Positions 3,901-41,050 of a DNA stretch of 64,000 nt are shown here, piece by piece (position 1 is the first letter of the stretch; the number at the start of each line of letters is the position of its first letter). The translations under genes were made by a program, and so were the position numbers. The notes beneath the pieces were generated by a model that worked only from the letters and a program-made list of their open reading frames with translations, was not told where the DNA came from and did not search any database. The DNA is from Escherichia coli. Its GTDB lineage: Bacteria > Pseudomonadota > Gammaproteobacteria > Enterobacterales > Enterobacteriaceae. The DNA lies in NCBI RefSeq assembly GCF_003018235.1, contig NZ_CP027437.1. The stretch is one strand, 5' to 3'.

Positions 3901-3956
3901 GCGTTTCTGATTCATTGATTAAAGGCCAGGCAGTAACTTACTGACTGGCCTTTTTA

Positions 3957-5260
3957 TTACTTCTGCTTCAACGCCGCATACACCTGATCAACTACCCAAC
4001 CATAAGTTGCAATCGGTAGCTGACCGCTTTCGAACATATTGGGATTTTTTTGTGGATCGGCAACTGGCGAATGTGGCTTGTTGCTTAACATCACAATCGC
4101 CATATGATTCACCGGATCGATAACGGTCACCGTCCCGGTCCAGCCAGTGTGACCGTAGGTTTGCGGGCTTGCCAGCGTGCCAAACGTCGGCGTCATGGTG
4201 GCATTACCATTCACGCGCCAGCCAAGGCCAAAAGTGGCATCTTCCTTAGAGCTGGTGGTGAACATCTTCACCGTTTCCGCACTGAACAGCTGCACATCGC
4301 CATAGCCGCCGCCGTTCAGCATCGTTTGCATTAACACCGCAATATCGCCGGTATTGGAAAACAACCCTGCATGCCCGGAAACGCCGCCCATCGAATAAAA
4401 GGCTTTTTCATCGTGCACCTGACCCCAGAGAGTGGAGGTGCGGATATTCGGGAAATGGATCACGCCATCGCGGGTATTGCCGTTGAGTTCCGTGGCGGCA
4501 ATTTGTTGCGGTTTAAAGCCTTTCAGTAGCGGATTAAACACCGTGTGCGTCAGGCCGAGCGGGCGATAAATCGACTCTTCAACATAGCGGTCAAGTGGCT
4601 GACCGGTAACCGACTCGACGATAAATCCAAGCAGCATATAATCGACATCGCTGTAGATATGCTTGCTGCCGGGCTGATACTCCAGCGGCGTGCGCTTGAT
4701 CATCTCCAGCGTCTGGCCTTTATCCTGGGAATATAACGCGCCCGTGACCGCTTTATTCGGGTATTGCGGATCTGCCGGGAAACCGCCGCTGTGATGCAGC
4801 AGATCAGAAATCCGCAGCGTGTTTTTGCCTTTGATCGCATCGTTCGGGCTGTCGGCAAACCCTGGAATATATTTCGCAATCCGATCGTCAGGATGCAGTT
4901 TGCCTTCGCTCATCAGCTTTTGCAGCGCGAAGTTAGTGGCGTACATCTTGGTGTTTGAGGCCAGATCATACAGCGTCCCGGTGGTGGCTTTTACAGGCTG
5001 CGCCATTAACGCGCTGCCATCGTACTTTTTCGCCGCGCCCCAGGCTTTGCGATAAACAATCTGATTATCTTTTATAATCAGCAGGTTTACTCCCGGATAA
5101 CCGGCATCCACCTGCTGGCTAATCCAGCGATCTATCTGGTTAAGCCGTTCGACGTTGAACCCTGCTTTCTCTGGCGAACTTTCTGTCAGAGCAGGGAATT
5201 TTGCGGCGCTGACGCTACAGCTAACAGCCAGCAGAGAAAGATAGAGCATTGTCCGTTTCA
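3957..5260 (-). CDS. yfeW: penicillin-binding protein 4B (class C beta-lactamase fold, SxxK)
   Basis: ORF track 3957..5348; start at 5260 (MKRTMLYLSLL signal peptide) gives 434 aa; 5 bp downstream of murP stop. Confidence 0.88.
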
Positions 5261-5265
5261 TGATA

Positions 5266-6690
<1,425 letters not shown>

Positions 6691-6693
6691 GGG

Positions 6694-7590
6694 TTATTCC
6701 TTTTCCAGAGCTTTGCGAATAAAGCCGCCGTGTTGATCCAGGCGTTTTTTAGCTTCTGCGGCATCGAGATTTTTCAGCACCATCACAATAGCCGTTTTAC
6801 AGTGGCGGTCGCAGGCAACCAATGCCGCTTCCGCTTGCTCAGCGCTACATCCGGTGGCGTTTTTGACGATATTGACCTGGCGTACATGCAGTTTTTCATT
6901 GGTGGCGACCACATCGACCATCAGGTTGCCGAACACTTTGCCGGATTTAATCATCAGCCCGGTGGAGAGCATATTGAGCACCAGTTTCTGCGCCGTACCT
7001 GCTTTCATTCGCGAAGAACCTGTGACCACTTCGGCCCCAACAACTGGCGTAATGGCAAACTCAGCGGTGGTTGAAACGGCGCTCCCGGGATTACAGGAAA
7101 TTCCCACTGTGCGGCAGCCGAGCTGGCGTGCGTATTCCAGTCCGGCAATTACATACGGCGTGCGACCACTGGCCGCAATGCCAACCACCACATCCTGCGC
7201 GGTTAAGCCGATGTTTTTCAGATCGTTAACACCACCTTCCCGGCTATCTTCAGCGCCTTCCACCGCGTGCTGAATGGCATATTCGCCTCCAGCAATCAAA
7301 CCAACCACCAGACCCGGTTTAACGCCGTAGGTGGGCGGACATTCGCTGGCATCCAGAATCCCCAGACGACCAGAAGTCCCCGCACCGATGTAAATCAGAC
7401 GGCCGCCGCCGCTCACCTGGGCGTGAATAACATCGATCGCCGCTGCAATATCCGGCAGTACGCGCTCAACGGCGAGTGGTACGGTTTTATCTTCATCGTT
7501 GATAATCCGGCACATTTCCAGCGTCGAAACGCGGTCAATTTCAGCCGAGGCGGCGTTCGAGCCTTCGGTAATCATCTTTTCAAGTTGCAT
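6694..7590 (-). CDS. murQ: N-acetylmuramic acid 6-phosphate etherase (SIS domain)
   Basis: 298-aa ORF; matches MurQ. Confidence 0.93.
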
Positions 7591-7761
7591 CGGTGGTGAC
7601 CTTACTATTTACGATCAAATAATTGCATATTGATGGAATCATATATCTCAATTTGCTAGTTTTAAAGGAATCATTGAGTCTGAAATCACAGAGTGTGAAG
7701 AGCGTCAAAGGGCAAAATCCGTGTGCTATGCTGCGCGCAGGATGTGGTGAGGGAGTGGAAG

Positions 7762-8619
7762 ATGTTGTACCTGACAAAATTACGCAATGCAGAAAGTGAC
7801 TTTACTGAAAATGAGCAAAAGATAGCCGACTTTCTGCAAGCCAGGGCGAGCGAACTGAAATCCGTTTCTTCACGAAATATGGCGAAACAGCTCGGTATTA
7901 GCCAGTCGAGTATTGTGAAGTTCGCTCAGAAACTCGGCGCGCAAGGGTTTACTGAATTGCGTATGGCGTTAATTGGCGAATACAGTGCCAGCCGGGAGAA
8001 AACGAATGCCACGGCGCTGCACCTGCACAGTTCGATTACCAGTGATGATTCGCTGGAAGTGATTGCCCGCAAACTGAATCGCGAAAAAGAGCTGGCGCTG
8101 GAGCAAACCTGTGCGTTGTTCGACTACGCGCGGCTGCAAAAAATCATTGAGGTCATCAGTAAAGCACCGTTTATCCAGATAACGGGCCTGGGTGGGTCGG
8201 CGCTGGTGGGGCGCGATCTTTCATTCAAACTGATGAAAATTGGTTATCGTGTTGCCTGTGAAGCTGACACGCATGTACAAGCCACCGTTTCCCAGGCGCT
8301 GAAAAAAGGCGATGTACAAATCGCTATCTCTTACAGCGGCAGTAAAAAAGAGATTGTCTTGTGCGCCGAGGCAGCGCGAAAGCAGGGGGCAACGGTGATT
8401 GCCATTACCTCATTAACCGATTCCCCGCTGCGGCGGCTGGCGCATTACACCCTCGATACCGTTTCTGGCGAAACCGAATGGCGCAGCTCGTCGATGTCCA
8501 CCCGCACGGCGCAAAATTCTGTTACCGATTTACTGTTTGTTGGCCTTGTGCAACTCAATGATGTGGAGTCATTGAAAATGATTGAGCGCAGCAGTGAGCT
8601 AACGCAACGCCTGAAATGA
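7762..8619 (+). CDS. murR: RpiR-family transcriptional repressor of murQP (HTH + SIS)
   Basis: ORF track 7723..8619; ATG at 7762 gives 285 aa starting MLYLTKLRN; divergent from murQ. Confidence 0.9.
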
Positions 8620-9539: not shown

Positions 9540-9709
9540 TTCACCTCTGTTTCCTCCCTGCATTTGTGGGGAGGATTTCGTCTTGAACCCGGTTCTTATT
9601 CCCTTTTCAACTTCCAAATCACCAAACGGTATATAAAACCGTTACTCCTTTCACGTCCGTTATAAATATGATGGCTATTAGAAAGTCATTAAATTTATAA
9701 GGGTGCGCA

Positions 9710-11559: not shown

Positions 11560-12434
11560 TGACGGAAGTTACCCAATTGAAGCGTTATGGCGCGCGCCCG
11601 ATTAACTGGGGCAAGTGGTTTCTGATTGGTATCGGGATGCTGGTTTCGGCGTTCATCCTGCTGGTGCCGATGATTTACATCTTCGTGCAGGCGTTCAGCA
11701 AAGGGCTGATGCCAGTTTTACAGAATCTGGCCGATCCAGACATGCTGCACGCCATCTGGCTGACGGTAATGATTGCGTTGATTGCCGTACCGGTAAACCT
11801 GGTGTTCGGTATTCTGCTGGCGTGGCTGGTGACGCGCTTTAACTTCCCCGGACGCCAGTTACTGCTGACGCTACTGGACATTCCGTTTGCCGTATCGCCG
11901 GTGGTTGCCGGTCTGGTGTATCTGCTGTTTTACGGCTCTAACGGCCCGCTCGGTGGCTGGCTGGATGAACATAATCTGCAAATTATGTTCTCCTGGCCGG
12001 GAATGGTGCTGGTCACCATCTTCGTGACGTGTCCGTTTGTGGTGCGTGAGCTGGTGCCGGTGATGTTAAGCCAGGGCAGCCAGGAAGACGAAGCGGCAAT
12101 TTTGCTTGGCGCGTCTGGCTGGCAGATGTTTCGCCGCGTCACGCTGCCGAACATCCGCTGGGCGCTGCTTTATGGCGTGGTGCTGACCAACGCCCGCGCG
12201 ATTGGCGAGTTTGGTGCGGTGTCGGTGGTTTCCGGCTCGATTCGCGGCGAAACACTTTCGCTGCCGTTACAGATTGAATTGCTGGAGCAGGACTACAACA
12301 CCGTCGGCTCCTTTACCGCTGCCGCGTTGTTGACGCTGATGGCGATTATCACCCTGTTTTTAAAGAGTATGTTGCAGTGGCGTCTGGAGAATCAGGAAAA
12401 ACGCGCGCAGCAGGAGGAACATCATGAGCATTGA
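11559..12434 (+). CDS. cysW: sulfate/thiosulfate ABC transporter permease
   Basis: 291-aa ORF; start overlaps cysU stop. Confidence 0.95.
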
Positions 12435-13521
12435 GATTGCCAATATTAAGAAGTCTTTTGGTCGCACCCAGGTGCTGAACGATATCTCACTGGATATTCC
12501 TTCTGGTCAGATGGTCGCATTGCTGGGGCCGTCTGGTTCCGGGAAAACCACGCTGCTGCGGATTATCGCCGGGCTGGAGCATCAAACCAGCGGGCATATT
12601 CGCTTCCACGGCACCGACGTCAGCCGCCTGCATGCGCGCGATCGTAAAGTTGGTTTCGTGTTCCAGCACTATGCGCTGTTCCGCCATATGACGGTGTTCG
12701 ACAATATCGCTTTCGGCCTGACGGTGCTGCCGCGTCGCGAGCGCCCGAATGCCGCAGCCATCAAAGCGAAAGTGACAAACTTGCTGGAGATGGTGCAGCT
12801 TGCGCATCTGGCGGATCGTTATCCGGCACAGCTTTCCGGCGGGCAGAAACAGCGCGTGGCGCTGGCGCGTGCGCTGGCTGTAGAACCGCAAATTCTGCTG
12901 CTTGATGAACCGTTTGGCGCGCTGGATGCGCAGGTGCGTAAAGAGCTGCGTCGCTGGTTGCGTCAACTGCATGAAGAACTGAAATTTACCAGCGTATTCG
13001 TGACCCATGACCAGGAAGAAGCGACCGAAGTAGCCGATCGTGTAGTGGTGATGAGCCAGGGCAATATCGAGCAGGCTGATGCGCCGGATCAGGTATGGCG
13101 CGAACCAGCGACCCGCTTTGTGCTCGAATTTATGGGCGAAGTGAACCGCCTGCAGGGAACCATTCGCGGCGGGCAGTTCCATGTTGGCGCACATCGCTGG
13201 CCGCTGGGCTATACACCTGCGTATCAGGGGCCGGTGGATCTCTTCCTTCGTCCGTGGGAAGTGGATATCAGCCGCCGTACCAGCCTCGATTCGCCGCTGC
13301 CGGTACAGGTACTGGAAGCCAGCCCGAAAGGCCACTACACCCAATTAGTCGTGCAGCCGCTGGGGTGGTACAACGAAGCGCTGACGGTCGTGATGCACGG
13401 CGACGACGCCCCGCAACGTGGCGAGCGTTTATTCGTTGGTCTGCAACATGCGCGGCTGTATAACGGCGACGAGCGTATTGAAACCCGCGATGAGGAACTT
13501 GCTCTCGCACAAAGCGCCTGA
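12424..13521 (+). CDS. cysA: sulfate/thiosulfate ABC transporter ATP-binding protein (Walker [10 protein letters not shown])
   Basis: 365-aa ORF; overlaps cysW by 11 nt. Confidence 0.95.
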
Positions 13522-13654: not shown

Positions 13655-14566
13655 GTGAGTACATTAGAACAAACAATTGGCAATACGCCTCTGGTGAAGT
13701 TGCAGCGAATGGGGCCGGATAACGGCAGTGAAGTGTGGTTAAAACTGGAAGGCAATAACCCGGCAGGTTCGGTGAAAGATCGTGCGGCGCTTTCGATGAT
13801 CGTCGAGGCGGAAAAGCGCGGGGAAATTAAACCGGGTGACGTGCTGATCGAAGCCACCAGTGGTAACACCGGCATTGCGCTGGCAATGATTGCCGCGCTT
13901 AAAGGCTATCGCATGAAATTGCTGATGCCCGACAACATGAGCCAGGAACGTCGTGCGGCGATGCTGGCATACGGTGCGGAACTGATTCTTGTCACCAAAG
14001 AGCAGGGCATGGAAGGTGCGCGCGATCTGGCGCTGGAGATGGCGAATCGTGGTGAAGGAAAGCTGCTCGATCAGTTCAATAATCCCGATAACCCTTACGC
14101 CCATTACACCACTACCGGGCCGGAAATCTGGCAGCAAACTGGCGGGCGCATTACCCATTTTGTCTCCAGCATGGGAACAACCGGCACCATCACCGGCGTG
14201 TCACGCTTTATGCGCGAACAATCCAAACCGGTGACCATTGTCGGCCTGCAACCGGAAGAGGGCAGCAGCATTCCCGGCATTCGCCGCTGGCCTGCGGAAT
14301 ATCTGCCGGGGATTTTCAACGCTTCGCTGGTGGATGAGGTGCTGGATATTCATCAGCGCGATGCAGAAAACACCATGCGCGAACTGGCAGTGCGGGAAGG
14401 AATATTCTGTGGCGTCAGCTCCGGCGGCGCGGTTGCCGGAGCACTGCGCGTGGCAAAAGCTAACCCCGGCGCGGTGGTTGTGGCGATCATCTGCGATCGC
14501 GGCGATCGCTACCTCTCCACCGGCGTGTTTGGGGAAGAACACTTTAGCCAGGGGGCGGGGATTTAA
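13655..14566 (+). CDS. cysM: cysteine synthase B (O-acetylserine sulfhydrylase B)
   Basis: ORF track 13577..14566; GTG at 13655 gives 303 aa starting (M)STLEQTIGNTPLVKL; upstream extension runs through the REP so is spurious. Confidence 0.92.
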   Translation: MSTLEQTIGNTPLVKLQRMGPDNGSEVWLKLEGNNPAGSVKDRAALSMIVEAEKRGEIKPGDVLIEATSGNTGIALAMIAALKGYRMKLLMPDNMSQERRAAMLAYGAELILVTKEQGMEGARDLALEMANRGEGKLLDQFNNPDNPYAHYTTTGPEIWQQTGGRITHFVSSMGTTGTITGVSRFMREQSKPVTIVGLQPEEGSSIPGIRRWPAEYLPGIFNASLVDEVLDIHQRDAENTMRELAVREGIFCGVSSGGAVAGALRVAKANPGAVVVAIICDRGDRYLSTGVFGEEHFSQGAGI

Positions 14567-14568
14567 GA

Positions 14569-15028
<460 letters not shown>

Positions 15029-15041
15029 GAGAAAAAATTAA

Positions 15042-15893
15042 ATGAGTAGTTTGTTGTTGTTTAACGATAAGAGCAGGGCGCTGCAGGCGGATATCGTCGC
15101 CGTGCAGTCGCAGGTGGTTTACGGCAGCGTGGGCAACAGCATTGCCGTGCCTGCTATCAAACAGAACGGCCTGAATGTCTTTGCCGTGCCGACGGTATTG
15201 CTGAGCAATACGCCGCATTATGACACTTTCTACGGTGGTGCGATTCCGGACGAATGGTTTAGCGGCTATTTGCGTGCGCTTCAGGAGCGTGATGCGCTGC
15301 GCCAACTTCGTGCTGTAACCACGGGCTATATGGGAACGGCATCGCAAATCAAAATCCTTGCCGAGTGGCTGACTGCGCTACGCAAAGACCATCCTGACCT
15401 ATTGATCATGGTCGATCCGGTGATTGGCGATATTGACAGCGGAATTTATGTCAAACCTGACCTTCCCGAGGCGTATCGACAATATTTACTGCCGCTGGCG
15501 CAGGGAATTACCCCCAATATCTTTGAGCTGGAAATCCTGACCGGTAAAAATTGCCGCGATCTCGACAGTGCCATTGCTGCCGCAAAAAGTCTGCTTTCAG
15601 ACACATTAAAATGGGTGGTGATTACCAGCGCCTCCGGTAATGAAGAAAATCAGGAGATGCAGGTGGTGGTGGTGAGTGCCGACAGCGTGAATGTCATTTC
15701 CCATTCACGGGTAAAAACCGACCTGAAAGGGACTGGCGACCTGTTTTGTGCTCAGCTTATCAGTGGTTTGCTGAAAGGGAAGGCGTTAAACGATGCGGTG
15801 CACCGTGCGGGGTTGCGCGTACTGGAAGTGATGCGCTACACCCAGCAGCATGAGAGCGATGAATTGATTTTGCCGCCGCTGGCGGAAGCATAA
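15042..15893 (+). CDS. pdxK: pyridoxal/pyridoxine/pyridoxamine kinase
   Basis: 283-aa ORF; ribokinase-like PdxK. Confidence 0.92.
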
Positions 15894-15921
15894 AAAATGG
15901 CGCCGATGGGCGCCATTTTTC
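15892..15921. terminator. bidirectional intrinsic terminator between pdxK and crr
   Basis: A-run, hairpin AATGGCGCCGATGGGCGCCATT, T-run. Confidence 0.7.
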
Positions 15922-15934
15922 ACTGCGGCAAGAA

Positions 15935-16444
15935 TTACTTCTTGATGCGGATAACCGGGGTTTCACCCACGGTTACGCTACCGGACAGTTTGATCAGTTC
16001 TTTGATTTCGTCCATGTTGGAGATAACAACCGGAGTCAGGGTAGACTTGGCTTTCTCTTCCAGCAGCGGCAGATCAAATTCAATGACAGTATCGCCAACT
16101 TTCACGCGCTGACCTTCTTCAGCAATACGCTTGAAGCCTTCGCCTTTCAGTTCAACGGTGTCGATACCGAAGTGGACGAACAGTTCAACGCCGCTATCAG
16201 ATTCGATAGAGAACGCGTGGTTGGTTTCAAAGATTTTACCAATGGTGCCGTCTACAGGCGCGACCATTTTGTTTCCAGTTGGTTTGATAGCAATGCCATC
16301 ACCAACGATTTTTTCCGCAAAAACGACATCCGGCACGTCTTCGATATTGACGATCTCGCCAGAGAGCGGAGCAATGATCTCAATAGTTCCGGTATCCTTC
16401 TTGTCGTCGGAAACCAGAGATTTCAGTTTATCGAACAAACCCAT
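15935..16444 (-). CDS. crr: PTS glucose-specific EIIA component
   Basis: 169-aa [19 protein letters not shown]...; exact recall of Crr. Confidence 0.97.
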
Positions 16445-16484
16445 GATCTTCTCCTAAGCAGTAAATTGGGCCGCATCTCGTGGA

Positions 16485-18212
16485 TTAGCAGATTGTTTTT
16501 TCTTCAATGAACTTGTTAACCAGCGTCATTAACTCGTCCGTTGTCGGTTGAGCAAGAGCCTGCTCTGCTAACACCTTCGCATCTTCGAAGTTCGTGTTAC
16601 GGATAATCTTCTTAATGCGCGGGATAGAAATGGCGCTCATAGAGAATTCGTCCAGACCCATCCCCAGCAACAGAAGTGTAGCACGTTCGTCGCCTGCAAG
16701 CTCACCACACATGCCAGTCCATTTGCCTTCAGCATGAGAAGCATCAATAACTTGCTTGATCAAGTTCAGCACGGACGGTGACATTGGCTGGTAAAGGTGT
16801 GAAATCATATCATTACCACGGTCAACTGCCAGAGTGTACTGCGTTAAATCATTGGTGCCGATACTAAAGAAATCAACTTCTTTGGCTAAATGACGTGCAA
16901 TTGTTGCGGCAGCCGGTGTTTCCACCATTACGCCGATTTCAATTGACTCGTCAAACGCTTTACCTTCGTCGCGCAGTTCCTGTTTGTAGATTTCGATCTC
17001 TTTGCGCAGTGCACGTACTTCTTCAACAGAGATGATCATCGGGAACATAATGCGCAATTTACCGAAAGCCGAGGCACGCAGGATAGCGCGGAGCTGATCG
17101 CGCAGGATCTCTTTACGATCCATTGCGATACGGATAGCGCGCCAGCCGAGGAACGGGTTCTCTTCTTTCGGGAAGTTCATGTATGGCAGCTCTTTGTCGC
17201 CGCCGATGTCCATGGTACGAACGATAACCGCCTGCGAGCCACACGCTTCAGCCACTGCTTTGTAAGCAGCAAACTGTTCTTCTTCAGTGGGCAGCGCGTC
17301 GCGGTCCATGAACAGGAACTCAGTACGATACAGACCAACGCCTTCAGCGCCGTTACGCTCTGCACCTTCAACGTCACGAACCGTACCAATGTTAGCGCAC
17401 ACTTCTACCTGGTGACCGTCCAGCGTAATAGCTGGCAGATCTTTCAGTTTAGCAAGCTCTGCTTTTTCAGAAGCCACTTGCTCCTGAACAGCGCGCATTT
17501 TATCAATAACTTCGTTGGTTGGATTGACGTAAACCTGATTATTTACGGCATCCAGAATCAGATAGTCGTCATTTTTCACCTGAGAGGTGACGCTACCGGT
17601 ACCCACGATAGCAGGCAGTTCCAGAGAACGCGCCATGATAGAGGTGTGGGAAGTACGGCCACCCGCGTCGGTGATGAAACCCAGCACCTTCTTCAGGTTC
17701 AGCTGTGCAGTTTCGGACGGTGTCAGGTCAGCGGCAACCAGAATGACTTCATCCTGAATGGCGCTCAGGTCGATAATCTTCAGGCCCAGGATGTTGCGCA
17801 GCAGGCGCTTACCGATATCACGTACGTCAGCCGCACGTTCTTTCAGGTATTCATCATCCAGCTCTTCCAGGGCAGAAGCCTGACCTTCGATAACTTCATG
17901 AGCAGCTGCGTCAGCTGTCATGTGCTTATCTTTAATCAGGGCTATGATTTCCTGCTCCAGCTCCTCATCTTCGAGCAGCATAATATGCCCTTCAAAGATG
18001 GCTTCTTTTTCTTCACCGAACGTTTCACCAGCTTTCGTTTTGATCGTTTCCAGCTGGGCTGATGCCTTGGCACGACCGCTCAGAAAACGTTCAACTTCCT
18101 GATCAACCTGGTCGGCAGAAATTTTTTTCCGGTCAATGACAATTTCGTCTTCTTTCAGAAGCAGAGCTTTACCGAAAGCGATACCCGGGGATGCTAAAAT
18201 GCCTGAAATCAT
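16485..18212 (-). CDS. ptsI: PTS enzyme I (phosphoenolpyruvate-protein phosphotransferase)
   Basis: 575-aa [22 protein letters not shown]... Confidence 0.97.
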
Positions 18213-25422: not shown

Positions 25423-26349
25423 ATGAATTATTCTTTAAAACAATTAAAGGTTTTCGTCACAGTAGCGCAGGAGAAAAGTTTTAGTCGTGCAGGAGAGCGT
25501 ATCGGCCTGAGCCAGTCGGCAGTGAGTCACAGTGTGAAGGAGCTGGAAAATCATACTGGTGTTCGCCTGCTGGACAGAACCACGCGTGAAGTGGTGCTTA
25601 CAGATGCAGGGCAGCAGTTGGCTTTGCGTCTTGAGCGACTGCTGGATGAACTTAACAGCACGTTGCGCGATACCGGGCGTATGGGGCAACAACTGAGCGG
25701 AAAAGTTCGGGTCGCTGCCAGCCAGACCATTTCCGCGCATCTTATTCCGCAATGCATTGCTGAAAGCCATCGCCGCTATCCAGATATTCAGTTTGTCCTG
25801 CACGATCGTCCGCAGCAGTGGGTGATGGAAAGTATTCGCCAGGGAGATGTCGATTTTGGCATCGTCATCGATCCAGGCCCAGTGAGCGATCTGCAATGTG
25901 AAGCGATTCTTTCCGAGCCTTTCTTCTTGCTTTGCCATCGCGATAGCGCTTTGGCCGCGGAAGATTATGTACCCTGGCAGGCATTACAGGGAGCGAAATT
26001 GGTGTTGCAGGATTACGCGTCAGGCAGCCGACCGCTGATTGACGCAGCGCTGGCGCGCAATGGTATTCAGGCGAATATTGTGCAGGAGATTGGTCATCCG
26101 GCGACGCTGTTCCCGATGGTAGCCGCAGGCATCGGCATCAGTATTCTTCCCGCACTGGCGCTACCATTGCCTGAAGGTAGCCCACTGATGGTAAAGCGCA
26201 TTACGCCGGTGGTGGAACGCCAGTTGATGCTGGTGCGCAGAAAGAACCGTTCACTTTCCACCGCCGCACAAGCGTTATGGGACGTGGTACGAGGCCAGGG
26301 CCGTGCGCTAATGGCTGGGCGGGAAGGGGAGCCGCTGTATCAGATATAG
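25423..26349 (+). CDS. yfeR: LysR-family transcriptional regulator
   Basis: 308-aa ORF with N-terminal HTH; divergent from yfeH. Confidence 0.85.
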
Positions 26350-26357
26350 AGCTATTC

Positions 26358-26380
26358 ATACTGCCGGGAGCCCCGGCAGT
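26358..26380. terminator. GC hairpin between convergent yfeR and yfeN (no clear U-tract)
   Basis: CTGCCGGGAGCCCCGGCAG. Confidence 0.35.
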
Positions 26381-26386
26381 AATCAA

Positions 26387-27151
26387 TCAGAAATTAAATT
26401 TGATGGAGTAGATTATTGCATCCTGGTAAAAATCTTCGCCCAGTTTGTCATCCGCATAACGATACTGAATCCCTGTGGTGATGTGTGAAGTTGCATTCCA
26501 CCAAAGTGCGACGGCACCGTTCAGACCTTCTTTGCCGCCATTACCTGCCGCGTAGGTGGCATCACGATCAAACTCGTACTCGTTCCAGTTGGTGAGGGTG
26601 AATTTCTCATTGCCCAGCATAAAGCTGTAACCTGCAACCCAACCGGCTACATAGCCGTTGTCGCCAGTGTAATAGGTTTGATCTGTATAACGCTTAGCAA
26701 AGAACGGTTTGAACCACCAACCGCTGCCGGTGAAATTGTAGCCGATCCCGTAAAGGAACATATCGTCATGGAAATTCACACGATTCGCAGAACCGTAGGT
26801 GCCATACGCATGCAAGTAGAGATTAAATCCGGTGTCACCCAGGTAAATACGGTTGGTATTTTTAAATGTATAACGCTGCTCGCTACCCGGTTTATCATGA
26901 CGATCATTATAAAAGTTTTCCCAGTCGAAGAACCCGTACATTTCTCCCCAACTAAAGTTAGCGCCGCCTTCCAGTTCCAGATATCCAAAATCATCTTTGT
27001 GTGATTTGGTCGACGATTTCTCAGTGGTTCTGCTAGTCCAGTCAAGATAATGAATACCTATATCAGCAAAACCGCCTTTAAATTCTGCATGGGATACTGC
27101 TGGTATCGCCAATACAGAAGAGAGTGTCAGAGTAAAAAGATGTTTTTTCAT
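26387..27151 (-). CDS. yfeN: outer-membrane beta-barrel protein YfeN
   Basis: 254-aa ORF with signal peptide, aromatic-rich, C-terminal F. Confidence 0.85.
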   Translation of the reverse strand: MKKHLFTLTLSSVLAIPAVSHAEFKGGFADIGIHYLDWTSRTTEKSSTKSHKDDFGYLELEGGANFSWGEMYGFFDWENFYNDRHDKPGSEQRYTFKNTNRIYLGDTGFNLYLHAYGTYGSANRVNFHDDMFLYGIGYNFTGSGWWFKPFFAKRYTDQTYYTGDNGYVAGWVAGYSFMLGNEKFTLTNWNEYEFDRDATYAAGNGGKEGLNGAVALWWNATSHITTGIQYRYADDKLGEDFYQDAIIYSIKFNF

Positions 27152-27399
27152 AGCATAATTCCCTATGCCGATCGTTATTAGTTGATTGCTTAATAAAAAG
27201 GTTGATTAAAAGCGGCATATTGTTAATGCAAGGGAAAGGAGAGTACCAATACAGTTTTTTCAGCCTATTAATAGTGAAAAAATATAAATATATCGATATC
27301 GAATAACTATCGGATACAAGAAAAAAGTGTATTGGTATGAGGTAGGGCAATCTCGTTATAAAAAGGCGTTAGATTCCACCCTACAAAAAAAGGATATAT

Positions 27400-28233
27400 A
27401 TGTCTCAGGCTCAGTTTTCTCATAACCCACTGTATTGCGTAGATATTATCAAGACTTATAAACCTGATTTCACGCCACGAGTGGCCTTTATTTTAGGTTC
27501 CGGGCTGGGCGCGCTGGCCGATCAGATTGAGAACGCGGTCGCAATTTCCTACGAAAAGCTGCCTGGGTTCCCGGTAAGTACCGTACACGGTCATGCGGGT
27601 GAGCTGGTGCTGGGTTATCTTCAGGGGGTGCCAGTGGCGTGCATGAAAGGTCGCGGACATTTCTACGAAGGTCGTGGGATGACCATCATGATGGATGCAA
27701 TCCGTACCTTTAAGTTGCTGGGCTGCGAGTTGCTGTTCTGCACCAATGCGGCTGGCTCACTGCGTCCTGAAGTGGGGGCCGGCAGTCTGGTCGCATTGAA
27801 AGATCACATCAACACCATGCCGGGAACGCCGATGGTGGGTCTTAATGATGAACGTCTTGGTGAGCGCTTCTTCTCGCTGGCGAATGCCTACGATGCGGAA
27901 TACCGCGCACTGTTACAAAAAGTGGCGAAAGAAGAGGGGTTCCCTCTGACGGAGGGCGTGTTCGTCTCGTATCCGGGTCCGAATTTCGAGACTGCGGCGG
28001 AAATTCGCATGATGCAAATTATTGGTGGGGATGTTGTTGGTATGTCTGTGGTGCCTGAGGTTATTTCTGCTCGCCATTGCGAACTTAAAGTCGTTGCGGT
28101 CTCTGCGATTACCAACATGGCGGAAGGTTTAAGCGATGTGAAATTGTCACATGCGCAAACGCTGGCGGCTGCGGAGCTCTCTAAGCAGAACTTCATCAAC
28201 CTTATTTGTGGCTTTCTGCGCAAAATTGCCTGA
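27400..28233 (+). CDS. xapA: xanthosine phosphorylase (PNP family)
   Basis: 277-aa ORF MSQAQFSHNPLYCVDIIKTYKPDF... Confidence 0.93.
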   Translation: MSQAQFSHNPLYCVDIIKTYKPDFTPRVAFILGSGLGALADQIENAVAISYEKLPGFPVSTVHGHAGELVLGYLQGVPVACMKGRGHFYEGRGMTIMMDAIRTFKLLGCELLFCTNAAGSLRPEVGAGSLVALKDHINTMPGTPMVGLNDERLGERFFSLANAYDAEYRALLQKVAKEEGFPLTEGVFVSYPGPNFETAAEIRMMQIIGGDVVGMSVVPEVISARHCELKVVAVSAITNMAEGLSDVKLSHAQTLAAAELSKQNFINLICGFLRKIA

Positions 28234-30740: not shown

Positions 30741-30761
30741 ATTTCGCAAATTGCAGATAGC

Positions 30762-30789
30762 AAAAAAGCGCCTTTAGGGCGCTTTTTTA
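30762..30789. terminator. bidirectional intrinsic terminator (tRNA operon and xapR)
   Basis: AAAAAAGCGCCTTTAGGGCGCTTTTTT. Confidence 0.75.
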
Positions 30790-30792
30790 CAT

Positions 30793-30868
30793 TGGTGGGT
30801 CGTGCAGGATTCGAACCTGCGACCAATTGATTAAAAGTCAACTGCTCTACCAACTGAGCTAACGACCC
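30793..30868 (-). tRNA. lysV: tRNA-Lys (anticodon UUU)
   Basis: Reverse complement reads GGGTCGTTAGCTCAGTTGGTAGAGCAGTTGACTTTTAATCAATTGGTCGCAGGTTCGAATCCTGCACGACCCACCA. Confidence 0.95.
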
Positions 30869-30872
30869 GAAG

Positions 30873-30948
30873 TGGTGGGTGATGACGGGATCGAACCGCC
30901 GACCCCCTCCTTGTAAGGGAGGTGCTCTCCCAGCTGAGCTAATCACCC
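30873..30948 (-). tRNA. valY: tRNA-Val (anticodon UAC)
   Basis: Reverse complement reads GGGTGATTAGCTCAGCTGGGAGAGCACCTCCCTTACAAGGAGGGGGTCGGCGGTTCGATCCCGTCATCACCCACCA. Confidence 0.95.
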
Positions 30949-30994
30949 ACTTCGGTACTTCACATTGCTACAAGAAATTTAGCTGGCGAGAAAG

Positions 30995-31070
30995 TGGTGG
31001 GTGATGACGGGATCGAACCGCCGACCCCCTCCTTGTAAGGGAGGTGCTCTCCCAGCTGAGCTAATCACCC
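30995..31070 (-). tRNA. valX: tRNA-Val (anticodon UAC)
   Basis: Identical 76-nt copy. Confidence 0.95.
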
Positions 31071-31114
31071 ACTTCTCAATTTCTTGCTACACGGCGGAGA
31101 CTACATAAAGTAGT

Positions 31115-31190
31115 TGGTGGGTGATGACGGGATCGAACCGCCGACCCCCTCCTTGTAAGGGAGGTGCTCTCCCAGCTGAGCTAATCACCC
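31115..31190 (-). tRNA. valU: tRNA-Val (anticodon UAC)
   Basis: Identical 76-nt copy; first in the operon. Confidence 0.95.
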
Positions 31191-31207
31191 CCGCTGTGTG
31201 GAGTCGC

Positions 31208-31235
31208 ATTATAGGGAGAGTTCAAAATGAGTCAA
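31208..31235 (-). promoter_or_regulatory. sigma-70 promoter of valU-valX-valY-lysV operon
   Basis: Minus strand: TTGACT - 16 bp - TATAAT followed by GC-rich discriminator GCGACTCC; AT-rich upstream. Confidence 0.6.
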
Positions 31236-31448
31236 CGCATTTTCTAAAGAAATTGTTCGTTCGTCGTAAATTTAAGCAAGATGATCGCAAAACAGACCGT
31301 GTTGCGCAATTTGTCAACGAAAACAATAATGCGTAAGGTTGCAACCCGAACTACATTGAGGAATCAGGCGGGAGTGATAGAATATCGCCCACTCAATTTT
31401 TCCAGGATTTGCCGGTTGTCGGCATCTTTCTAAACGTAAGGCCATTTC

Positions 31449-32864
31449 ATGAAAATCAAAACTCGCTTCGCGCCAAGCCCAACAGGCTATCTGCACGTTG
31501 GCGGCGCGCGTACTGCTCTTTACTCCTGGCTTTTTGCACGTAACCACGGCGGTGAGTTCGTGCTGCGTATTGAAGACACCGATCTTGAGCGTTCCACGCC
31601 GGAAGCTATCGAAGCCATTATGGATGGCATGAACTGGCTGAGCCTGGAGTGGGATGAAGGTCCGTACTACCAGACCAAACGTTTTGATCGCTACAACGCG
31701 GTGATCGATCAGATGCTGGAAGAGGGCACAGCTTATAAATGCTATTGCTCTAAAGAGCGCCTGGAAGCGCTGCGCGAAGAGCAAATGGCGAAAGGTGAGA
31801 AGCCGCGTTATGACGGTCGCTGCCGCCACAGCCATGAGCATCATGCTGATGATGAACCGTGCGTTGTACGTTTTGCTAACCCGCAGGAAGGTTCTGTTGT
31901 TTTTGACGATCAGATCCGTGGCCCGATTGAGTTCAGCAACCAGGAGCTGGATGATCTGATTATCCGTCGTACCGATGGTTCTCCAACCTATAACTTCTGT
32001 GTGGTGGTTGACGACTGGGATATGGAAATCACCCACGTTATCCGTGGCGAAGACCATATCAACAACACGCCACGCCAGATCAACATTCTTAAAGCACTGA
32101 AAGCGCCGGTACCGGTTTACGCGCACGTTTCTATGATCAACGGCGATGACGGCAAAAAACTGTCCAAACGTCACGGGGCGGTCAGCGTAATGCAGTATCG
32201 TGATGACGGTTATTTGCCAGAAGCACTGCTGAACTATCTGGTGCGTCTGGGCTGGTCCCACGGCGATCAGGAAATCTTCACTCGTGAAGAGATGATCAAA
32301 TACTTCACCCTGAATGCCGTCAGCAAATCTGCCAGTGCGTTCAACACCGACAAGCTGCTGTGGCTGAACCATCACTACATTAACGCGCTGCCGCCGGAGT
32401 ATGTTGCTACTCACTTACAGTGGCACATTGAGCAGGAAAATATCGATACCCGTAACGGCCCGCAGCTGGCTGATCTGGTGAAACTGCTGGGCGAACGCTG
32501 CAAGACGCTGAAAGAGATGGCACAGAGCTGCCGTTATTTCTACGAAGATTTTGCTGAGTTCGATGCCGACGCCGCGAAAAAACATCTGCGTCCGGTAGCG
32601 CGTCAGCCGCTGGAAGTAGTTCGTGACAAACTGGCCGCGATTACTGACTGGACCGCTGAAAACGTTCATCACGCTATTCAGGCGACGGCGGATGAGCTGG
32701 AAGTGGGTATGGGTAAAGTTGGTATGCCGCTGCGTGTCGCCGTAACCGGTGCGGGGCAGTCTCCGGCGCTGGATGTTACCGTTCACGCAATCGGTAAGAC
32801 CCGCAGTATCGAGCGTATCAACAAAGCGTTGGCTTTTATTGCTGAACGCGAAAATCAGCAGTAA
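31449..32864 (+). CDS. gltX: glutamyl-tRNA synthetase (HVGG = HIGH and KLSKR = KMSKS motifs)
   Basis: 471-aa ORF. Confidence 0.96.
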
Positions 32865-32887
32865 TTAGCGCATAAAAGATAAACGGC

Positions 32888-32921
32888 AGGAGAGATACCC
32901 CTGCCGTTTTTTATTTATTCT
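32888..32921. terminator. intrinsic terminator after gltX (overlaps yfeD stop)
   Basis: AAACGGCAGGAGAGATACCCCTGCCGTTTTTT. Confidence 0.6.
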
Positions 32922-33307
32922 GATTCATCTATGTCGAGACGAGCAAGGAAATTACGAATTCCTTCGCGTGACAAAAATTGCGCAACTTTTTCCTGCTCAC
33001 TGTGAGTCATGTTGTCTATTGCGCTGATGATTTGCCGATAAGCAGGAGTGCGAATCCCCGGTGCGTATTCGGCAAGGGGTTCTTCGGCTTCCAGAAGCAT
33101 CGGCGTGTTATGGAAGGCTGGCGTGTTCTGAATAAACTCGCAAACTTGCGTATCGACCAGAATAAGTCTGGCACGACCGCCTTTCACGCCAGGAAATTTT
33201 TCCGTTTTCCAGCCTTTTTCTCTGATCCAACGGTTAACAGTTTGTTTAGCCACACCGAGGCATTCAGCCAGTTCTTCGGTGGTCATTTTATTGCGTAATC
33301 TTTTCAT
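32915..33307 (-). CDS. yfeD: small HTH DNA-binding protein YfeD
   Basis: 130-aa ORF; paralog of the adjacent yfeC. Confidence 0.8.
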   Translation of the reverse strand: MKRLRNKMTTEELAECLGVAKQTVNRWIREKGWKTEKFPGVKGGRARLILVDTQVCEFIQNTPAFHNTPMLLEAEEPLAEYAPGIRTPAYRQIISAIDNMTHSEQEKVAQFLSREGIRNFLARLDIDESE

Positions 33308-33308
33308 A

Positions 33309-33653
33309 TTATTTGCTATCGCGAATCCCTAAGCGTTGTAATAATCCGATAATCCCTTCCCGCAGAAGCAAGGATGTAAACTGTTTTTGTTCAACTGGCG
33401 TCATCTCTTTCGCCAGTGTCACCAGCAACACTTCAAGCGGCGCATCACCAGACAGGGCAGGCGCTTCTCCCTGACCTTCTGGACGTTCAGCATTGCGAAT
33501 ATATTCACGAACCTGTTCATTGACGTGAACCAGTCGGGCTTTGCCACCCTGGACGCCTGGTTTTGGTGACGTTGTCCAGCCTTCCTTGCGTACCCATTTA
33601 TTAATGGTCTGGCGGCTATAGCCGGTCAGTCTGGCAAGTTCATCTGGCGTCAT
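33309..33653 (-). CDS. yfeC: small HTH DNA-binding protein YfeC
   Basis: ORF track 33309..33668; second ATG at 33653 gives 114 aa starting MTPDELARLTGYSRQTINKW; start at 33668 (119 aa) is possible. Confidence 0.75.
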   Translation of the reverse strand: MTPDELARLTGYSRQTINKWVRKEGWTTSPKPGVQGGKARLVHVNEQVREYIRNAERPEGQGEAPALSGDAPLEVLLVTLAKEMTPVEQKQFTSLLLREGIIGLLQRLGIRDSK

Positions 33654-33828
33654 CCTCTCCTTGAACATAACAATTCCCTGAATGTATGTGGGTCTATTAG
33701 TAGTTCATTTTATAACACCACTTTACAGGAAACCGTGACATGAATAACTACTGAATGCGAGCGGTTTTCCAAAATTGTTCATTTGCCTGATTTTTCAGCG
33801 ATTGAAACTACACGTTGCAATTTGCCGT

Positions 33829-33856
33829 TGACACATTCGGGCGGAATTCATATGAT
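33829..33856 (+). promoter_or_regulatory. sigma-70 promoter of alaX-alaW
   Basis: TTGACA - 16 bp - TATGAT then GC-rich discriminator, about 32 nt before the tRNA. Confidence 0.5.
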
Positions 33857-33888
33857 GCCGCCCGTCAACTCGACAAGCTTTACGTGAC

Positions 33889-33964
<76 letters not shown>

Positions 33965-34003
33965 AATTTTGCACCCAGCAAATTTGGTACGTAAACGCAT
34001 CGT

Positions 34004-34079
<76 letters not shown>

Positions 34080-34087
34080 AATTTCCA

Positions 34088-34113
34088 ACCCTCGCTGCAA
34101 AGCGGGGGTTTTT
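34088..34113 (+). terminator. intrinsic terminator after alaW
   Basis: CCCTCGCTGCAAAGCGGGGGTTTTTT. Confidence 0.65.
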
Positions 34114-34286
34114 TGTCTCTGCTTTTTGCCGCTTTTGTAATACAGTCTACGTCCGGGTTAGCGCCGCCTGGTGAAAGCATCATTGGATGAAAAATCGGCA
34201 ACAGGCTGGCCCCTGTTTGCTTCGCGATGCGAATAAACTTATTATTTGTGTGCCTGAAAACCCCGATCAGTGAGAGTAGTGTACTC

Positions 34287-36476
34287 ATGTTTGTGGAGCA
34301 TAACCTGATAAAAAATATCAAGATATTCACACTAGCGTTTACGCTCACCGTGGTACTTATTCAGCTATCCCGTTTTATTTCGCCACTTGCCATTATCCAT
34401 TCCAGTTATATCTTTCTGGCGTGGATGCCACTGTGCGTAATGCTGTCAATCTTGTTTATCTTTGGCTGGCGCGGTGTCGTTCCCGTTTTATGCGGGATGT
34501 TTTGCACCAATCTGTGGAACTTTCATCTCTCTTTTTTACAGACCGCGGTCATGCTCGGCAGCCAGACGTTTGTTGTGTTGTGTGCCTGCGCAATATTACG
34601 CTGGCAGCTGGGGACGCGTTGGCGTTATGGATTGACCAGCCGATATGTCTGGCAACGTCTTTTCTGGCTTGGTTTGGTGACGCCGATCGGCATCAAATGC
34701 AGCATGTATCTTGTGGGGAGCTTTTTTGATTTCCCGCTAAAGATATCCACCTTTTTCGGCGATGCGGATGCCATTTTCACAGTCGTTGATTTACTAAGCC
34801 TTTTCACCGCTGTGCTGATTTACAACATGCTTTTCTACTATCTCACTCGCATGATTGTAAGTCCCCACTTTGCGCAGATATTGTGGCGCAGGGATATCGC
34901 TCCGTCGTTGAGCAAAGAGAAACGCGCATTTACCTTAAGCTGGCTGGCAGCTCTTAGCGTGCTGCTACTTCTGATGTGCACACCGTATGAGAATGACTTT
35001 ATTGCCGGTTACCTGGTACCTGTTTTCTTCATTATCTTTACCCTCGGTGTCGGTAAGCTTCGCTATCCGTTTTTAAATCTCACCTGGGCTGTTTCAACGC
35101 TTTGCCTTCTGAATTACAACCAGAACTTTTTGCAAGGGGTACTAACCGAATATTCGCTGGCATTTATTCTCGCGGTGCTGATTTCCTTTAGCGTTTGCCT
35201 GCTCTATATGGTGCGCATTTATCATCGCAGTGAATGGCTTAATCGCCGCTGGCATTTGCAGGCGCTGACCGATCCGTTAACGCTCCTACCCAACTTTCGT
35301 GCGTTGGAGCAAGCGCCGGAGCAAGAGGCGGGCAAGAGTTTTTGCTGCCTGCGCATTGATAATCTTGAGTTTATGAGTCGTCATTACGGCTTAATGATGC
35401 GCGTTCACTGTATCCGCTCAATTTACCGTACGCTGCTGCCGTTGATGCAGGAAAACGAAAAGTTGTATCAATTGCCGGGTAGTGAACTGCTGTTAGTGCT
35501 GAGTGGACCGGAAACGGAAGGGCGACTCCAGCATATGGTTAACATCCTGAATAGTCGGCAAATTCACTGGAACAATACCGGGCTGGATATGGGCTATGGT
35601 GCTGCCTGGGGGCGTTTTGATGGAAATCAGGAAACCCTGCAACCCTTGTTGGGGCAGTTAAGCTGGCTGGCGGAGCAATCCTGCGCACATCACCATGTGC
35701 TGGCGCTGGATAGCAGAGAGGAGATGGTTTCCGGGCAGACCACTAAACAGGTGCTATTGCTGAATACCATTCGCACGGCGTTAGATCAGGGTGATTTGCT
35801 GCTCTACGCCCAGCCAATTCGCAACAAAGAGGGTGAAGGTTATGATGAGATCCTCGCGCGACTGAAATATGACGGTGGCATTATGACCCCGGATAAGTTT
35901 CTGCCCCTTATTGCTCAGTTTAACCTTAGCGCGCGTTTTGATTTGCAAGTGCTGGAATCCCTGTTGAAGTGGCTGGCAACACATCCTTGCGACAAAAAAG
36001 GCCCGCGCTTTTCAGTCAATTTAATGCCGCTCACGCTGCTGCAAAAGAATATTGCCGGGCGGATTATTCGTCTGTTTAAGCGTTATAACATCTCCCCGCA
36101 GGCGGTCATTCTTGAGATCACCGAGGAGCAGGCGTTTTCTAACGCAGAAAGCAGCATGTACAACATCGAGCAACTGCATAAGTTTGGTTTCCGGATTGCG
36201 ATTGATGACTTTGGCACCGGTTATGCCAACTACGAACGGTTAAAGCGTTTGCAGGCTGATATCATCAAAATTGATGGCGTCTTTGTGAAAGATATCGTCA
36301 CGAATACGCTGGATGCGATGATTGTGAGATCAATTACCGATCTGGCGAAAGCGAAGTCATTGAGTGTGGTCGCGGAGTTTGTCGAGACGCAACAGCAGCA
36401 GGCGCTATTGCATAAGCTCGGGGTGCAATATCTGCAAGGGTATTTGATTGGTCGCCCGCAGCCATTAGCTGATTAA
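34287..36476 (+). CDS. pdeA: c-di-GMP phosphodiesterase: N-terminal membrane sensor, degenerate GGDEF, EAL domain
   Basis: ORF track 34227..36476; ATG at 34287 gives 729 aa starting MFVEHNLIKNIKIF; DDFGTGYANYERL motif in C-terminal domain. Confidence 0.88.
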   Translation: MFVEHNLIKNIKIFTLAFTLTVVLIQLSRFISPLAIIHSSYIFLAWMPLCVMLSILFIFGWRGVVPVLCGMFCTNLWNFHLSFLQTAVMLGSQTFVVLCACAILRWQLGTRWRYGLTSRYVWQRLFWLGLVTPIGIKCSMYLVGSFFDFPLKISTFFGDADAIFTVVDLLSLFTAVLIYNMLFYYLTRMIVSPHFAQILWRRDIAPSLSKEKRAFTLSWLAALSVLLLLMCTPYENDFIAGYLVPVFFIIFTLGVGKLRYPFLNLTWAVSTLCLLNYNQNFLQGVLTEYSLAFILAVLISFSVCLLYMVRIYHRSEWLNRRWHLQALTDPLTLLPNFRALEQAPEQEAGKSFCCLRIDNLEFMSRHYGLMMRVHCIRSIYRTLLPLMQENEKLYQLPGSELLLVLSGPETEGRLQHMVNILNSRQIHWNNTGLDMGYGAAWGRFDGNQETLQPLLGQLSWLAEQSCAHHHVLALDSREEMVSGQTTKQVLLLNTIRTALDQGDLLLYAQPIRNKEGEGYDEILARLKYDGGIMTPDKFLPLIAQFNLSARFDLQVLESLLKWLATHPCDKKGPRFSVNLMPLTLLQKNIAGRIIRLFKRYNISPQAVILEITEEQAFSNAESSMYNIEQLHKFGFRIAIDDFGTGYANYERLKRLQADIIKIDGVFVKDIVTNTLDAMIVRSITDLAKAKSLSVVAEFVETQQQQALLHKLGVQYLQGYLIGRPQPLAD

Positions 36477-36483
36477 CAGGCGT

Positions 36484-36516
36484 AAAAAAGCCGGGGAATG
36501 ATCCCCGGCTTTTTTA
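36484..36516. terminator. bidirectional intrinsic terminator between convergent pdeA and nupC
   Basis: AAAAAAGCCGGGGAATGATCCCCGGCTTTTTT. Confidence 0.75.
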
Positions 36517-36525
36517 TGTATGGTT

Positions 36526-37728
36526 TTACAGCACCAGTGCTGCGATTGACGCAGACAGCACACTCACCAGGGTAGAGCCGTAAACCAGTTTCAGACCGAA
36601 GCGAGAAACCACGTTACCTTGCTCTTCATTCAGGCCTTTAACTGCACCGGCGATAATCCCGATTGAAGAGAAGTTAGCGAAGGAAACCAGGAACACAGAG
36701 ATGATGCCTTCAGCACGCGGAGAGAGTGTAGAGGCAATTTTCTGCAGATCCATCATCGCAACGAACTCGTTGGAAACCAGTTTGGTCGCCATGATACTGC
36801 CCACTTGCAGTGCTTCACTGGAAGGAACACCCATCACCCATGCAATCGGATAGAAGATGTAGCCCAGGATGCCCTGGAAGGAGATGCTGTAGCCAAACCA
36901 GCCAGTAACGGTGGCAAACAGTGCGTTCAGCGCGGCGATCAGGGCGATAAAGCCGATCAGCATCGCGGCAACGATAATGGCAACTTTGAAACCTGCCAGA
37001 ATGTATTCACCCAGCATTTCGAAGAAGCTCTGACCTTCGTGCAGGTTGGACATCTGGATGTTTTCTTCACTGGCATCAACACGGTAAGGGTTGATCAGCG
37101 ACAGCACGATAAAGGTGCTGAACATGTTCAGTACCAGTGCCGCAACGACGTATTTCGGTTCCAGCATGGTCATGTATGCACCAACGATGGACATCGACAC
37201 GGTGGACATCGCCGTGGCAGCCATGGTGTACATGCGATTGCGGGAGATTTTGCCGAGGATATCTTTATAGGCAATAAAGTTTTCAGACTGACCCAGAATC
37301 AGGGAGCTGACGGCGTTAAAGGATTCCAGTTTGCCCATGCCGTTGACTTTGGAGAGCAGGAAACCAATTGCGCGGATAATCACCGGCAACACGCGAATGT
37401 GCTGGAGAATACCGATCAGTGCAGAGATAAAGACGATTGGGCACAGCACTTTCAGGAAGAAGAATGCCAGGCCTTGATCATTCATGCTACCAAAGACGAA
37501 GTTAGTCCCTTCGTTGGCAAATCCGAGCAGTTTTTCAAACATTTCGGAGAAGCCTTTCACGAAGCCTAAACCAACGTCGGAGTTCAGGAAGAACCACGCC
37601 AGTAACACTTCGATAACAAGCAGTTGAATAACATAACGGATACGAATTTTTTTGCGGTCGCTGCTTACCAGCAGTGCGAGAATCGCAACAACGGCAAGTG
37701 CCAGTACAAAATGAAGGACGCGGTCCAT
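36526..37728 (-). CDS. nupC: nucleoside:H+ symporter (CNT family)
   Basis: ORF track 36526..37767; ATG at 37728 gives 400 aa starting [20 protein letters not shown]. Confidence 0.92.
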
Positions 37729-37995
37729 ATTTGCTCCAAATATGAGGCAGGTTAAATTTCCGTGCACATTCTATGTAACATGGTTAAGGAAAACGAGATC
37801 TGACACACACTATAATGACGTCCTGTGACAAGCTTCAAAAATAGTGAGCTGTCATACATTTCTGCTATGTTGTGTATGGAAGCTGAAAGTTATGTAAATG
37901 TGCTAACATTAAACATAACCATAACATTCAAGTCATCAATCTTTTCGTAGTCATAATCCTGGTCTATCAGAGAAATCACCACAACCCATTTAAAT

Positions 37996-38014
37996 GAATT
38001 TGATAATCATTATC
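37996..38014 (+). promoter_or_regulatory. Fur box in mntH promoter
   Basis: TTTGATAATCATTATC matches Fur consensus GATAATGATAATCATTATC. Confidence 0.6.
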
Positions 38015-38029
38015 GTTTGGCATAGCATG

Positions 38030-38051
38030 AAACATAGCAAAGGCTATGTTT
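38030..38051 (+). promoter_or_regulatory. MntR operator in mntH promoter
   Basis: Palindrome AAACATAGC-AAAG-GCTATGTTT 13 bp before mntH ATG. Confidence 0.6.
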
Positions 38052-38054
38052 TAG

Positions 38055-39302
<1,248 letters not shown>

Positions 39303-39331
39303 TTCAACTGGCGTCGTACCAGGCATCACTG

Positions 39332-39368
39332 GCGGATGCGGCGTAAAACGCCTTATCCGCCCTATGCG
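39332..39368. repeat. REP element downstream of mntH (first REP of a BIME pair)
   Basis: GCGGATGCGGCGTAAAACGCCTTATCCGCCCTATGCG. Confidence 0.6.
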
Positions 39369-39382
39369 TTAAAGAGACGGTT

Positions 39383-40700
<1,318 letters not shown>

Positions 40701-40723
40701 TTGTGCTCCATTGACGGACGCGT

Positions 40724-41050
40724 TTAATGGCGATGCCCATGTCCGCGGCCTTTTCCGCGATGATCGTCACGATCGCGCCAGCCTTCACGATAGCCACGCT
40801 CATACGCTTTACGCTTATCCCAGCCACGATGGTAGCCATTATCATGACGCCACCAGCGGTTCTTACGCCATTCATAATTGCGATGCCAGTAGTCACGGTC
40901 GCGCCAGTGACCACCGTCCCAGTAATTACCGTAATGATCGCGATCGCCAATTTGTAATTTGATTGATGGCAGTAGGGTGATTTCACCTGCGTTTGCCGCA
41001 AGCGGGGTAAATGCCATCAGGGCGGCCGCCAGAAACAGTGACCTGAACAT
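40724..41050 (-). CDS. ypeC: secreted low-complexity (H/R/D/W/Y-rich) DUF2502 protein
   Basis: 108-aa ORF with signal peptide [21 protein letters not shown]. Confidence 0.8.

Follow-up and report, generated by a model that had tools for sequence, protein, structure and literature searches.

The 64,000-nucleotide stretch of Escherichia coli DNA analysed here (contig NZ_CP027437.1; hereafter the window) carries two convergent genes that are separated by a short intergenic gap. On the plus strand, pdeA (yfeA, 34287..36476) encodes a GGDEF/EAL cyclic-di-GMP phosphodiesterase; on the minus strand, nupC (36526..37728) encodes a nucleoside:H+ symporter. The corresponding open reading frames are 749 codons for pdeA (34227..36476, the frame reaching upstream to 34227) and 413 codons for nupC (36526..37767). 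The gene limits are those of strain SC418, whose 99.8% identical DNA is annotated with both genes and maps to 34287..36476 and 36526..37728. Family scans agree with these names, the pdeA product matching EAL-type cyclic-di-GMP phosphodiesterases and the nupC product matching TIGR00804 (nupC) with 486.7 bits. The stop codon of pdeA ends at 36476 and that of nupC occupies 36526-36528, leaving 49 bp between them (36477..36525, caggcgtAAAAAAGCCGGGGAatgaTCCCCGGCTTTTTTatgtatggtt); the gap has the same length in six other genomes. The initial annotation had described the two genes as converging on a clean 49-bp gap, and its coordinates match both the open reading frames and the SC418 annotation.

The gap holds one strong hairpin, which the fold energies and a terminator scan of both strands predict to be a bidirectional intrinsic terminator (36484..36515), as had been proposed. 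An 8-bp GC-rich stem (36490-36497 paired with 36502-36509) closes a 4-nt loop (36498-36501). The hairpin is flanked by an A-tract (36484-36489), the complement of which forms the U-tract of the minus-strand transcript, and by a T-tract (TTTTTT, 36510-36515), which forms that of the plus-strand transcript; six U residues come immediately after the stem in the transcript of either strand. The plus strand folds with an energy of -31.1 kcal/mol (z-score -6.9) and the minus strand with -25.6 kcal/mol (z-score -6.1), and none of 200 shuffles was as good in either case. The consensus terminator scan returned a terminator-like site in the gap on both strands. A stem-loop on each strand, a U-tract on both and a position just after convergent stop codons are the features of a bidirectional intrinsic terminator. 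The hairpin resembles those of other convergent bacterial genes in being a single GC-rich hairpin set between an A-tract and a T-tract; each strand's transcript is predicted to end in a stem and then a U-run, as in the known examples, and we found no oddity in it. We suggest from the sequence that the hairpin is the Rho-independent terminator shared by pdeA and nupC and that it would act as such in vivo.

We considered whether the hairpin is mainly a palindrome of another kind (a REP-like repeat or a protein-binding site, for example) that lies between the genes by chance. REP-like palindromes do occur in other gaps of the window, for example at the IS621 insertion site near 39388. However, the full anatomy of a terminator is present on both strands, with the stem, loop and six U residues described above, and the hairpin starts only 13 nt past the pdeA stop codon and 16 nt past that of nupC. 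The window contains no second copy (the motif is matched once), and Rfam gave no family match in the gap, the only matches within 33500-41000 being two tRNA-Ala genes. A palindrome of another kind is therefore very unlikely.

In K-12 MG1655, the same gap is interrupted. The initial annotation placed an IS186 copy between nupC and pdeA in this strain, and the RefSeq record (NC_000913.3) indeed annotates IS186C exactly there, at 2514273-2515617 with insL3 (b2394), flanked by nupC (2513042-2514244) and pdeA (2515643-2517832). Using the 23-bp terminal repeats of IS186 to locate the junctions, we find that MG1655 reads, in the orientation of the window, AAAAAAACCGG followed by GGAATTATCC, the 1339-bp IS186, a second GGAATTATCC and then CCGGCTTTTTT. 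Removing the element and one copy of the repeat restores a 49-bp gap of the form seen in the window, with two hairpin bases different: relative to the rebuilt K-12 hairpin, the window has G for A at the base of the stem and G for T in the loop. The two loci thus share their chromosomal position, their flanking genes in the same order and, once the element is taken out, the hairpin and the length of the gap; they differ in that the window has no IS186 and in that identity in the surrounding DNA is no more than about 97-98%. The alignment of the window to MG1655 breaks at 36494-36505, where a 12-bp overlap corresponds to the duplicated target. At the MG1655 junctions, the 77-78 nt past each stop codon fold no better than shuffles (z-scores -0.65 and -1.14), and the terminator scan of both junctions gave no terminator-like site. 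K-12 has probably lost the shared terminator that the window keeps.

The stem of the hairpin also contains the sequence at which IS186 inserts. From 68 new IS186 insertions that arose in mutation-accumulation lines, Lee et al. (2016; PMC5009759) derived the target 5'-GGGG(N6/N7)CCCC-3', which is highly specific and which the element enters in either orientation; some sites were hit many times, and only 54 such sites were counted in the MG1655 genome. In the window, GGGGAATGATCCCC at 36493-36506 fits this rule in its GGGG-N6-CCCC form (GGGG-AATGAT-CCCC), is unoccupied and is the only such motif in the 64 kb. One match is not beyond chance, 0.8 being expected in 64 kb and at least one occurring in 54 of 100 shuffles; we link the motif to IS186 because homologous sites are occupied at exactly these bases, and not on the statistics of the motif. 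The central 10 bp, GGAATGATCC (36495..36504), are the bases found duplicated around IS186 when the junctions of the natural isolates B25FEP, SFE8, TW10722 and ws5-3 are extracted, and their K-12 counterpart, GGAATTATCC, is duplicated in MG1655 and in ETEC4085. The 23-bp terminal inverted repeat of IS186, CATAAGCGCTAACTTAAGGGTTG, has no match anywhere in the 64 kb when up to three mismatches are allowed.

The site is similar to the IS186 hot spots of Lee et al. (2016; PMC5009759), having GGGG-N6-CCCC in its stem and receiving IS186, in other genomes, between the G and C runs and in both orientations. The differences are that the site in the window is unoccupied and that it lies in a terminator rather than in a promoter or coding sequence. 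The promoter of lon is reportedly one such hot spot. Since the present site is in a terminator between convergent genes, no loss-of-function phenotype of the lon kind is expected from its occupation. A search of the full-text literature returned nothing on IS186 together with nupC or yfeA, and IS186 combined with insL3 gave only unrelated papers.

A 401-bp query centred on the gap was compared with complete E. coli genomes, a site being counted as uninterrupted where the query matched in one place with at least 80% coverage. By this measure, 4440 of 5424 genomes (82%) have an uninterrupted site. A junction query places IS186 in the K-12 orientation in 472 genomes (473 with the full element as query), and 467 have it in the opposite orientation, among them HS, ATCC 8739, E. 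coli C, ETEC H10407, UMNK88 and ML35. Occupancy by IS186 is therefore about 17%, or roughly one complete genome in six; of the 984 genomes with no uninterrupted match, about 45 (984 minus 939) fall outside both IS186 groups. The genomes listed with the K-12 orientation include many laboratory derivatives of K-12 and also clinical and animal isolates. Direct inspection found the empty 49-bp gap in REL606 (E. coli B, phylogroup A), O103:H2 12009 (B1), UTI89 (B2), O157:H7 (E), SC418 and TUM14771. For E. coli B, the scores around a BL21 match did not separate an empty site from one occupied in the opposite orientation, and the state given is that read directly from REL606.

Among the roughly 45 genomes outside both IS186 groups is ST2747 (NZ_CP007394.1), in which a 1.3-kb deletion between the 3' end of pdeA and the 5' end of nupC (window 36407 to 37733; junction at 4105-4108 of the ST2747 stretch) has taken out nupC together with the terminator. 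There is no IS end at the junction, and the change is a plain deletion unrelated to IS186.

Three hairpin alleles were seen in the genomes that we inspected. They differ at one position at the base of the stem and one in the loop, and all keep the GGGG-N6-CCCC core. In B25FEP, SFE8, TW10722 and ws5-3, which belong to a group of about 15 genomes with IS186 on the window-type allele, the 40 flanking bases compared to the left and to the right of the element agree fully with the window, and GGAATGATCC stands on both sides of the element. As both copies of the repeat have the window-type G, the duplication was made on the window-type allele; IS186 has therefore used the very allele of the window as a target. 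Judged from these junctions, the insertion on the window-type allele would most simply be separate from that in K-12. There are at least three occupied states, namely the K-12-type allele with the element in both orientations and the window-type allele, and we infer that they arose by separate insertions. The IS186 copies are identical or one base apart across the occupied states and give no further resolution. On the K-12-type allele, both orientations have one and the same duplication and identical IS copies (0 differences); an in-place flip of IS186 may be the source of one of them.

We suggest that, very probably, the gap in the window is the intact original terminator and a vacant IS186 target, in a genome that was never hit here or that comes from a lineage that was not hit. 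According to this model, an intact terminator of the ancestral type would end both convergent transcripts, pdeA and nupC, and its GC-rich stem would double as a canonical IS186 target, GGGG-N6-CCCC. In K-12 and about one-sixth of complete genomes, IS186 has inserted in the middle of the hairpin and duplicated the central 10 bp, parting the arms of the stem by about 1.34 kb, which would abolish the terminator for both genes. The genome of the window shows the unoccupied allele and would never have been hit at the site, or would descend from an unhit lineage.

The empty site could instead be secondary, an ancestral IS186 having been removed precisely by excision or by recombination with the empty allele of another strain. 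Occupancy of the site is common, and the window, compared with its closest relative, SC418, is a mosaic of recombined blocks (some of 99.5-100% identity, others of 97-98%), so allele replacement does happen in this region. Against such a loss, GGAATGATCC occurs only once in the window and no scar is left, and the empty gap is spread over phylogroups A (REL606), B1, B2 and E. Excision is also rare, with one event against 758 insertions in the data of Lee et al. (2016; PMC5009759), and the flanking 8.6 kb (30750-39387) form one continuous 99.8% match to SC418, which is empty too. We regard secondary removal as highly improbable. That a real IS186 copy was collapsed out of the assembly can also be proposed, repeated IS elements being a common source of assembly error. 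Such a collapse would normally show as a broken contig, or as IS ends and a target duplication left behind, whereas the gap of the window is seamless and agrees base for base with SC418 and TUM14771, and no IS186 end sequence lies anywhere in the window; we consider an artefact extremely unlikely.

A more far-reaching proposal would be that the nupC-pdeA terminator is a natural IS186 hot spot whose occupancy is selected, rather than just tolerated, in some lineages, the window representing the 'off' state of a recurrent regulatory polymorphism. If this were true, the split terminator would let the pdeA and nupC transcripts run into the IS and towards each other, and expression of the cyclic-di-GMP phosphodiesterase or of nucleoside uptake would be altered. 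We think this very improbable. The polymorphism is an IS polymorphism of a known kind; the K-12 insertion is in the standard annotation, the target rule is published, and nothing here is new in kind. The observation is correct but ordinary, and its biological significance is small. It does show that the IS186 copy in the K-12 reference is a derived insertion, missing from most E. coli, and some caution is warranted where K-12 is taken as the template for this locus, such as for the nupC and pdeA 3' ends. Whether IS186 is present at the terminator, and in which orientation, gives a simple strain marker, and the site adds another natural case of repeated use of a GGGG-N6-CCCC hairpin by IS186.

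The initial annotation took the empty gap, an IS621-like element and the lack of yfeS as signs of a non-K-12 background, and all of this is borne out, most firmly by the sequence as a whole. We aligned the entire window to three joined MG1655 stretches (2470000-2565000). It is colinear with MG1655 in the reverse direction (about 2553545 to 2488048), with about 97.3% identity over some 62 kb and alignment blocks of 94.5-97.8%. Three larger structural differences were found: IS186C is absent, the yfeS region is absent, and an insertion of 1279 bp is present. The divergence of nearly 3% shows that the background is not K-12 far more firmly than these three markers do. The empty site excludes K-12 and identifies no lineage, because it is the majority state (82%) and is found in E. 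coli B as well; nor is an occupied site specific to K-12, given the 467 genomes with the opposite orientation and the natural isolates with the K-12 orientation. The absence of yfeS and the presence of IS621 are likewise common to other strains (O157:H7 and TUM14771 for the former, O103:H2 12009 for the latter).

The 1279-bp insertion lies at 39388-40665, between mntH and ypeC. It encodes a 326-codon open reading frame on the minus strand (39493..40473) that matches the model of IS110-family RNA-guided transposases with 255.8 bits, and its product agrees at 322 of 327 positions with a protein of O103:H2 12009 that is annotated as 'IS110-like element IS621 family transposase'. IS621 occupies the same mntH-ypeC site in that strain, and further complete genomes align to the window without a break through the element; it is absent from this site in MG1655, SC418, UTI89, O157:H7 and REL606. 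The copy is inserted in a REP-like palindrome.

Some 960 bp of MG1655 (2537704-2538666), including yfeS, have no counterpart in the window at about 14571-14575. The stop codons of cysM and yfeK are here about 3 bp apart (at about 14565-14575), leaving no room for a terminator. The gene is absent in the same way from O157:H7 RIMD 0509939 and TUM14771 and is present in K-12 and REL606. O157:H7 and TUM14771 also carry a FlxA-like gene in place of the yfeN-xapABR segment of the window and K-12, and an IS609-type tnpA/TnpB element between gltX and yfeD; these differences, at 12285-12626 and 14935-16576 of their stretches, mark the region as hot for variation in gene content.

Across positions 17000-56000 of the window, identity is highest to SC418 (98.7%), followed by TUM14771 (98.2%), O157:H7 (97.7%), UTI89 (97.3%) and MG1655 (97.2%). 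By block, identity to SC418 is 99.5-100% at 30-44 kb and 56-59 kb and 97-98% at 44-54 kb. None of 5,426 complete E. coli genomes reaches 99% identity over the 25 kb from 38500 to 63499. We considered whether this points to an origin outside E. coli proper and rejected the idea on the block-wise identities, 98.7% to SC418 and 97.2-98.2% to K-12, UTI89, O157:H7 and TUM14771. These comparisons indicate an ordinary mosaic of recombined E. coli blocks and a lineage that is sparsely sampled among complete genomes.

Identity to MG1655, about 97-99% elsewhere, drops to about 92% in two 2-kb blocks of the window, 6001-8000 and 26001-28000. On the MG1655 map, these blocks fall at murQ/murP and at yfeR/yfeN/xapA, respectively, and the second is 98.4% identical to SC418; they are probably divergent recombined alleles. 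Short intergenic indels of about 130-160 bp relative to MG1655 occur near 3926-3951 (yfeW/yfeX) and 9583-9588 (cysP/ucpA), and these probably reflect differences in REP-element content.
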